Source: Escherichia coli (GTDB taxonomy: Bacteria; Pseudomonadota; Gammaproteobacteria; Enterobacterales; Enterobacteriaceae). Taken from it: DNA of 64,000 bases. The translations under genes and the position numbers were made by a program. This document shows, piece after piece, positions 1-1,687 of this stretch; positions within the stretch are counted from its first letter, which is position 1, and each line of letters starts with the position of its first letter. Below the pieces are notes generated by a model that saw only the letters and a list, made by a program, of their open reading frames with translations, was not told the DNA's origin and ran no database searches. The stretch is taken from NCBI RefSeq assembly GCF_013122565.1, contig NZ_CP053258.1. One strand, written 5' to 3'.

Positions 1-197
1 GTTTGGGTATAGAAATACTGGACGGAAATATGCGTCCGGTGAAATTGAATGACCTTCATGCCGGGATGCAGTGGATCCCACTGGTACCAGAACAGAACAA
101 TGTTTTGCCTTACTCCGCTCGTTTGAAGTCAACTCAGAAGTCCGTCAATCCGGGACTGGTGAGCGCTTCGGCAACATTTACCCTTGAATTTCAATGA
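1..197 (+). CDS. ydeS: Fimbrial subunit, C-terminal fragment (start lies upstream of window)
   Basis: Reading frame runs in from the window edge; ends in ...ATFTLEFQ, a typical fimbrial-subunit C-terminal strand; position directly upstream of ydeR. Confidence 0.7.
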   Translation, partial: LGIEILDGNMRPVKLNDLHAGMQWIPLVPEQNNVLPYSARLKSTQKSVNPGLVSASATFTLEFQ

Positions 198-209
198 TCA
201 GAGTCAGAT

Positions 210-713
210 ATGAAAAGACTTCACAAGAGGTTCCTGTTAGCTACGTTTTGCGCGTTATTCACAGCAACTCTCCAGGCCGCCGATGTCACTATCACTGTTA
301 ATGGTCGGGTAGTCGCTAAACCCTGCACTATTCAAACCAAAGAAGCTAACGTTAATCTCGGGGATCTTTATACACGCAATCTGCAACAACCTGGTTCTGC
401 ATCAGGCTGGCACAATATTACTTTGTCATTAACCGATTGTCCGGTTGAAACAAGTGCAGTGACGGCAATCGTGACAGGTTCAACTGACAATACGGGTTAT
501 TACAAAAATGAAGGTACTGCCGAAAATATTCAGATAGAGCTAAGGGATGACCAGGATGCGACGTTAAAAAATGGCGATAGCAAAACGGTTATTGTTGATG
601 AGATCACTCGTAATGCACAGTTTCCACTTAAGGCAAGAGCTATCACGGTGAATGGAAACGCAAGCCAGGGAACGATCGAGGCGCTAATCAATGTGATCTA
701 CACTTGGCAATAA
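210..713 (+). CDS. ydeR: Fimbrial-like minor subunit (FimG-like), 167 aa
   Basis: ATG at 210; N-terminal signal peptide ending ...TLQAADV; pilin-like sequence; length matches K-12 YdeR. Confidence 0.85.
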   Translation: MKRLHKRFLLATFCALFTATLQAADVTITVNGRVVAKPCTIQTKEANVNLGDLYTRNLQQPGSASGWHNITLSLTDCPVETSAVTAIVTGSTDNTGYYKNEGTAENIQIELRDDQDATLKNGDSKTVIVDEITRNAQFPLKARAITVNGNASQGTIEALINVIYTWQ

Positions 714-772
714 CGTCGATTCGATTTTCTTAGCCTCCTTTTTAAATCAATTTTTTAACCTTAGGATATATC

Positions 773-1687
773 ATGGGTAAAACAATAAGTATGAAGGTTC
801 TGTTCGGTATTTATCTTCTATTAATAGCAGGCAAAGTTTTTGCCTTCAGTTGTAATGTCGATGGCGGGTCAAGTATTGGAGCAGGTACAACCTCTGTTTA
901 TGTTAATCTCGACCCTGTAATACAACCGGGCCAGAATCTGGTTGTAGACTTGTCTCAGCATATAAGTTGCTGGAATGATTACGGCGGCTGGTACGACACT
1001 GATCATATAAACCTGGTACAAGGCTCAGCTTTCGCAGGCTCCCTACAGTCATATAAAGGATCGCTGTACTGGAATAATGTGACCTACCCCTTCCCGTTGA
1101 CAACAAATACCAACGTATTGGATATTGGTGATAAGACACCGATGCCATTACCGTTAAAACTCTATATTACTCCAGTCGGGGCGGCCGGCGGAGTTGTCAT
1201 AAACGCGGGGGAAGTTATTGCCCGTATTCATATGTATAAAATTGCAACATTAGGAAGCGGAAATCCGCGTAATTTTACGTGGAATATTATTTCAAATAAC
1301 AGTGTTGTTATGCCAACAGGCGGCTGCACCGTTGATAGTCGTAATGTCAACGTGAATCTCCCGGACTTTCCTGGAAGCGCAGAAATACCCCTTGGCGTAT
1401 ATTGCTCAAGTGAACAAAAGCTCTCATTTTATCTTTCGGGTGCTACCACTGACAGTGCCAGACAAGTGTTTGCTAACACAGCACCAGATGCAACAAAAGC
1501 AGCGGGAGTGGGTGTCTCTCTGATGCGTAATGGAAAAATACTGGCTACGGGAGAAAATGTCTCCCTGGGGACAGTAAATAAAAGCAAAGTACCTCTGGGT
1601 TTAAGCGCAACCTATGGACAAACAGGAAACAAAGTTTCAGCCGGAACCGTCCAGTCAGTCATTGGTGTCACTTTTATCTATGAATAA
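773..1687 (+). CDS. ydeQ: FimH-like fimbrial adhesin, 304 aa
   Basis: Signal peptide then FSCNVDGGS...; clear similarity to FimH lectin and pilin domains (VVDLS, PTGGC, IGVTF motifs). Confidence 0.88.

Follow-up and report, generated by a model that had tools for sequence, protein, structure and literature searches.

Three genes at the edge of an Escherichia coli sequence as the probable distal end of an F9 (Fml/Yde) fimbrial operon

To which fimbriae do three subunit genes at the edge of a sequence belong, and can the strain that carries them still build the organelle? These questions are raised by the first 1,687 nucleotides (nt) of a 64,000-nt stretch of Escherichia coli DNA (NCBI RefSeq assembly GCF_013122565.1, contig NZ_CP053258.1; the whole analyzed stretch is termed the window), in which a truncated ydeS is followed by ydeR and ydeQ. 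We find that positions 1–1687 very probably form the promoter-distal end of F9 (Fml/Yde), a chaperone-usher operon of six genes, in a strain that is most likely F9 capable. F9 is a well-known system that has already been named in the literature, and the finding is correct but ordinary, with nothing new in it.

RESULTS

Genes at the window edge

The genes and domains on which this identification turns are listed below, with positions in the window and lengths in amino acids (aa).

1..197, + strand: 3′ part of ydeS, FimF-like adaptor subunit of F9 fimbriae (open reading frame [ORF] running off the left edge)
210..713, + strand: ydeR, FimG-like minor subunit of F9 fimbriae, 167 aa (ORF list, PF00419, NCBIfam FimG model)
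773..1687, + strand: ydeQ (fmlH), two-domain tip adhesin of F9 fimbriae, 304 aa (ORF list, PF09160)
~773–844, + strand: ydeQ signal peptide
~845–1318, + strand: ydeQ lectin domain (mature residues 1–158)
~1319–1684, + strand: ydeQ pilin domain, followed by the stop codon at 1685–1687
2021–4300: ydeP, 759 aa (NCBIfam YdeP, 1833 bits)

The ydeS fragment consists of codons 113 to 176 of 176 plus the stop (64 aa in frame at 3–197, with bases 1–2 ending codon 112); its frame and position were checked against the full-length gene on L004 (positions 8895–9425), a contig from another sequencing run that is described below. Among Pfam matches, YdeQ hits PF09160 (FimH_man-bind) at 259 bits (E value, 1e-77; cutoff, 25) and YdeR hits PF00419 (Fimbrial) at 39.1 bits (cutoff, 25.6). 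The 64-aa YdeS fragment scores 24.7 bits for PF00419, slightly below the cutoff because only a fragment lies in the window; the full-length protein has a PF00419 match. A preliminary description, made from the letters of this DNA, had named a partial ydeS, ydeR, and a FimH-like adhesin, ydeQ, at 1–1687. ORFs, RefSeq names, Pfam matches, and synteny with K-12 all agree with these names, and “FimH-like” is right for the fold and family of the adhesin, whose expected ligand is, by its conserved contacts, a galactoside.

Protein comparisons place the genes with the F9 operon. The YdeS fragment is identical to K-12 YdeS at 61 of 64 residues (95.3%) and to the C-terminal residues of L004 YdeS (176 aa) at all 64; full-length YdeS, taken from L004, is 98.3% identical to its K-12 counterpart and 98.9% to that of CFT073. 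The corresponding values are 99.4% and 98.8% for YdeR and 97.0% and 97.4% for YdeQ. With the F9 reference (CFT073 c1931–c1936; K-12 ydeT-ydeS-ydeR-ydeQ; FmlH, UniProt P77588), the window genes share their position upstream of ydeP, their order, and their lengths; proteins are 97 to 99% identical, ligand-contact and toggle residues are kept, and the promoter is identical in the contig assigned to the same strain. They differ from this reference in that the adhesin has Asn, not Lys, at mature position 120 and in that the 5′ neighbor is an island containing tcuRABC, not hipBA directly.

The gene order ydeS-ydeR-ydeQ-ydeP-safA-ydeO-ydeN is that of K-12, where it lies on the opposite strand, and collinearity with K-12 (1,588,505 down to 1,524,006) extends over the whole window; synteny of ydeS, ydeR, and ydeQ with ydeP also holds in strains L65, UTME-7, and CFT073. 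Of 5,426 complete E. coli genomes, 5,337 have the three-gene locus by megablast of window positions 1–2020. In total, ydeS-ydeR-ydeQ had 5,359 matching places, 6 of which sit on records labeled plasmid. No frameshifts or internal stops occur in the window copies of ydeS, ydeR, and ydeQ. Against K-12, UTME-7, and L65, ratios of nonsynonymous to synonymous substitution rates (dN/dS) are 0.10 to 0.20 for ydeQ, 0.00 to 0.12 for ydeR, and 0.08 to 0.13 for ydeS, and those of the neighboring ydeP are 0.01 to 0.03 in the same comparisons, which indicates that the fimbrial genes are under purifying selection, if apparently somewhat weaker than that on ydeP. The spacer between ydeQ and ydeP is 333 nt long and AT-rich (32.7% G+C). 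Scans of positions 1–2100 gave no convincing + strand terminator 3′ of ydeQ and no promoter-like sites above shuffle expectation, and an Rfam scan of the whole window returned no match within 1–2020.

The adhesin YdeQ and its expected ligand

In a search of solved structures, residues 25 to 184 of YdeQ proved identical at 159 of 160 positions to the crystallized FmlH lectin domain (PDB 6AOW, 5LNE, and others), the single change being K120N (mature numbering; codon 144). Like the FimH chain, which starts with FAC, the mature chain has no N-terminal extension and begins with FSC; its Cys3/42/161/187 parallel FimH Cys3/44/161/187. The mannose pocket and tyrosine gate of FimH are formed by F1, I13, N46, D47, Y48, I52, D54, Q133, N135, Y137, N138, D140, and F142. 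At 7 of these 13 aligned positions, YdeQ has a different residue (I52Y, Q133K, N135A, Y137L, N138G, D140G, and F142P). FmlH contacts terminal galactose through F1, D53, K132, and N140, and its Y46 and R142 touch the second sugar or aglycone (Kalas et al. 2018, PMC5866590); the window YdeQ has all six. Also present in the translated protein are L32, V33, and F63, which constitute the allosteric toggle of FmlH (PMC8064603). With the galactoside contacts kept and the mannose pocket replaced, the expected ligand is a galactoside and not mannose. Judged by its sequence, YdeQ is FmlH, a predicted lectin for Gal-β-1,3-GalNAc and Gal-β-1,3-GlcNAc (Gal, galactose; GalNAc, N-acetylgalactosamine; GlcNAc, N-acetylglucosamine), a binding activity known for CFT073 and the crystallized FmlH lectin domain.

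The Asn residue at mature position 120 lies outside the six galactoside contacts of Kalas et al. (PMC5866590) and is also found in L65. The exact 61-nt haplotype around the Asn144 codon was recovered by megablast from at least 13 of the 5,426 complete genomes (14 records returned), a number that gives a minimum for the Asn allele and not a frequency because megablast needs a 28-nt exact word and misses copies with nearby single-nucleotide polymorphisms. It is conceivable, though very improbable, that this rare allele might shift the allosteric balance or fine specificity of the adhesin, for example, toward plant or environmental glycans at low temperature; if so, the shift would sit in a lineage whose divergence from all complete genomes is 1.3% or more and in which the operon lies beside a tcuRABC island.

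The upstream half of the operon

According to the preliminary description, completeness of the cluster cannot be judged from the window, and this is so: the upstream half lies outside. We addressed the question by proxy, using Logan contigs from sequencing run SRR11451224. The exact YdeQ protein of the window is on record on two contigs only, L004 (contig 143 of this run) and L003, and the exact YdeN protein on one only, L009, from the same run as L004. L004 is 100.000% identical to window positions 1–5094, as far as the contig end, and L009 is 100.000% identical to positions 5418–16634, such that the two cover 16.3 kb of the window without a mismatch. The best of the 5,426 complete E. coli genomes is at most 98.7% identical to the window (2 kb or 25 kb compared), and it follows that SRR11451224 almost certainly derives from this strain or from one clonally related to it. 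L003, whose operon is complete, is 99.0 to 99.1% identical to the window in the stretches that were compared.

Upstream of window position 1, L004 continues for 9,228 nt and carries the following.

4267–4303: mapped f9 promoter, unchanged
4554–5117: F9 major subunit, 187 aa, intact
5478–6188: F9 chaperone, 236 aa, intact (PapD_N, PapD_C)
6230–8881: F9 usher, 883 aa, intact (PapC_N, Usher, PapC_C)
8895–9425: full-length ydeS, 176 aa

The usher and chaperone genes, which the preliminary description had singled out as those to look for upstream, are thus both intact by proxy. The six F9 proteins encoded on L004 equal CFT073 c1931–c1936 in length and are 97.4 to 98.9% identical to them. The promoter is the one mapped in CFT073 by 5′ rapid amplification of cDNA ends, which consists of a −35 element (TAGTCG), an 18-nt spacer, and a −10 element (CATAAT), with a +1 G 251 nt before the ATG (PMC3966885). 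Given this promoter and the intact major subunit, chaperone, and usher genes, the strain most likely can build F9 fimbriae; by proxy from L004 and L009, its F9 operon is most likely intact.

A 360-nt AT-rich gap precedes the chaperone gene and holds an apparent 9-bp G+C-rich hairpin (GGGTGTGTG...CGCACACCC; L004 5159–5187), about 40 nt 3′ of the stop codon of the major-subunit gene. This putative hairpin may determine how abundant the major-subunit transcript is relative to those of the minor subunits.

The K-12 deletion and its spread in the population

In K-12, the cluster was described earlier as cryptic through disruption of the usher gene. The usher has indeed lost its 5′ part, but this understates the defect: alignment of L004 with K-12 reveals a 3,277-bp deletion (L004 4378–7654) that takes part of the 5′ untranslated region, together with the genes for the major subunit and the chaperone and codons 1 to 475 of the usher gene. 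The remnant YdeT (382 aa) is 99% identical to the C-terminal part of the usher. Because the deletion, which has a 3-nt overlap at its junction, begins 75 nt downstream of the mapped +1, K-12 keeps the f9 promoter region ahead of the ydeT remnant; in 467 nt, this region shares 90.8% identity with L004. The proximal half of the operon is at least 80% present in 3,567 of the 5,426 complete genomes, in agreement with the results of Wurpel et al. (PMC3966885), in which 60% of 42 genomes were intact and all phylogroup A strains were disrupted.

Type 1 genes or an orphaned remnant?

Two other readings of the window genes were weighed. Several names and models would make them fimF, fimG, and fimH of type 1 fimbriae, with an adhesin that would then be mannose specific: the NCBIfam equivalog models score above their cutoffs for YdeR (FimG model, 256.6 versus 220) and full-length YdeS (FimF model, 239.1 versus 200), several RefSeq genomes label the locus fimG/fimF, and the Pfam name of the adhesin domain is “FimH, mannose binding.” The sequence refutes this assignment, to which we attach next to no probability. 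Identities to K-12 FimF, FimG, and FimH are just 45.6%, 57.8%, and 47.9%, respectively, versus 97 to 99% for YdeS, YdeR, and YdeQ, and values so much higher for the Yde than for the Fim proteins make the window genes paralogues, not orthologues, of the type 1 genes. Moreover, the locus adjoins ydeP and is not the fim locus (which has fimB/fimE and fimD/gntP), over half of the mannose-pocket and tyrosine-gate positions are changed, and the lectin domain is, but for one residue, that of the galactoside-binding FmlH structures. With other marks of type 1 genes failing, we read the FimG and FimF scores as a sign of limited model specificity. The F9 major subunit likewise passes the FimA model (174.2 versus a cutoff of 140); the FimA, FimF, and FimG models capture F9 paralogues, and as a result, RefSeq alternates ydeS/ydeR with fimF/fimG and calls the F9 major subunit fimA.

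The second reading accepts the genes as F9 but regards them as an orphaned remnant, as in K-12, with the proximal genes deleted or interrupted just beyond the window and no pilus made. Several observations lend it some weight and count against an intact operon. The upstream half is outside the window, and its completeness rests on assigning the SRR11451224 contigs to the same strain or a clonal relative. About one-third of complete E. coli genomes are without the proximal half, many of them carrying the K-12-type deletion (34% coverage), and 40% of the 42 genomes of Wurpel et al. were scored as disrupted (PMC3966885). In UTME-7, which matches L004 at 99.8% identity across 4.5 kb of 5′ flank, a deletion associated with the insertion sequence (IS) IS3 has removed the operon core, such that a recent disruption in a close relative is possible. 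The identification with F9 must also accommodate Asn at mature position 120 of the adhesin, where the crystallized and K-12 proteins have Lys. On the other side, the same-run contigs match 16.3 kb exactly, with L004 running through a complete operon into window position 1; L003, the other contig with an identical YdeQ, has a complete operon as well; and the window copies of ydeS, ydeR, and ydeQ show no decay. We consider a remnant unlikely and favor the tail of an intact F9 operon.

Type 1 fimbriae (fimAICDFGH) have F9 as their closest paralogue, and the two share an architecture of major subunit, chaperone, usher, two adaptors, and two-domain adhesin, as well as a disulfide pattern, at protein identities of 46 to 67%; their G-type donor strands are almost identical (ADVTITVNGRVVAK versus ADVTITVNGKVVAK). 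The F9 operon differs in that it is without fimI, occupies a different locus, and has a sugar pocket rebuilt for galactosides, and in that the recombinase genes fimB and fimE are not annotated beside it in the strains examined. Its regulation also differs, by involving H-NS and low temperature (PMC3966885).

Proposed pilus assembly and regulation

The scheme below extrapolates from the type 1 pilus paradigm and the F9 literature. YdeQ (FmlH) would be the tip adhesin, with an N-terminal lectin domain predicted to bind terminal galactosides, including the Thomsen-Friedenreich (TF) antigen Gal-β-1,3-GalNAc, and Gal-β-1,3-GlcNAc. Its C-terminal pilin domain would be without the final strand, which the N-terminal extension of the FimG-like YdeR would supply; YdeR would in turn be completed by the FimF-like YdeS, and YdeS would join the tip fibrillum to the rod. 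The chain would thereby run from the adhesin through YdeR and YdeS to the rod of major subunits, assembled at the outer-membrane usher from subunits bound to the periplasmic chaperone, both of which are encoded upstream.

Sequence features of the subunits are consistent with these roles. Signal peptides and the conserved disulfide are present in alignments of the set, and the C termini of YdeS, YdeR, and YdeQ (IYE, TWQ, and EFQ) follow an aromatic-x motif. The hydrophobic leader of YdeR ends in A-A-D and that of YdeS in S-A-D, followed by the extensions ADVTITVNGRVVA and ADSVIKISGRVLD, respectively, with a Cys pair in each protein; the predicted mature N terminus of YdeR, ADVTITVNGRVVAKPC, is the donor-strand extension. 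In comparison to the FimG extension, that of YdeR has one residue changed, K to R, a single difference that fits with the display of FmlH on type 1 fimbriae, which is known to be possible (PMC8064603).

As for expression, the cloned F9 operon of CFT073 makes fimbriae, and in that strain the operon is repressed by H-NS and expressed at 20°C (PMC3966885). By extension from this work, F9 expression in the present strain would be silenced by H-NS at 37°C and turned on at approximately 20°C.

Implications

F9/Fml fimbriae and FmlH are already well characterized, and the value of these results lies mostly in correct annotation. In chronic urinary tract infection, FmlH and F9 fimbriae are a target for drugs and vaccines. 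The F9 operon of the strain, unlike that of K-12, is very probably intact and potentially functional; the K-12 defect can now be stated exactly, as a 3.3-kb deletion that keeps the promoter. The capture of F9 paralogues by the NCBI FimA, FimF, and FimG models leads to inconsistent RefSeq names, and a rare adhesin allele (mature K120N) is recorded in this strain. Neither the rare adhesin haplotype nor the tcuRABC arrangement suggests a new mechanism.

Lineage and flanking DNA

Since no complete genome is more than 98.7% identical to the window, the host appears, from sequence comparison, to be a rarely sequenced E. coli lineage. A Shigella origin was considered as a cause of the low identity but is not supported: the exact YdeQ and YdeN proteins occur on two contigs and one contig only, when an abundant clone would give many, and the genes shared with K-12 are without IS-type interruptions.

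An island lies between hipBA and f9 (L004 1–4553; L006, from UTME-7, 5178–16120) and comprises an autotransporter fragment, a major facilitator superfamily transporter, a cellulase-family gene, a LacI regulator, and tcuR-tcuABC (tricarballylate utilization). At least 80% of the stretch from tcuABC to f9 is present in 33 of the 5,426 genomes.

On the other side of the fimbrial genes, the window contains two matches to an 18-bp inverted-repeat consensus for EvgA, TTCYTACA-NN-TGTARGAA, reportedly from Masuda and Church (2003). The matches have one mismatch each and lie upstream of ydeP (1760–1777) and upstream of safA-ydeO (4419–4436); chance expectation in the window is 0.04. EvgA controls ydeP (PMC3720670), and the match at 1760–1777, a predicted site, marks the border between the fimbrial operon and the EvgA-controlled acid resistance genes.

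Farther along the window, the site of the K-12 yddL/yddK/yddJ remnants (42314–46159) carries an intact ORF for a porin-like protein (366 aa) and two ORFs with leucine-rich repeats (421 and 417 aa), with ~2.5 kb of sequence that has no K-12 counterpart. There was no exact-protein record for the 421-aa leucine-rich-repeat protein (43578–44840), probably owing to a differing start call. At 57269–61145, 3.9 kb of small, AT-rich, minus-strand ORFs (90 to 250 aa) stand in place of the 6.4-kb K-12 segment rhsE-ydcD-yncI-ydcC-pptA and may be candidate orphan immunity-type genes. The fdnI-yddM intergenic region (36133–36328) is ~180 bp longer than that of K-12, as seen by overlapping alignment blocks, and the extra sequence is probably a repeated element of the repetitive extragenic palindromic (REP) type. 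The sole Rfam match in the window is SECIS_3 (40301–40359, − strand; 84.3 bits), in a part that is collinear with the fdnG region of K-12.
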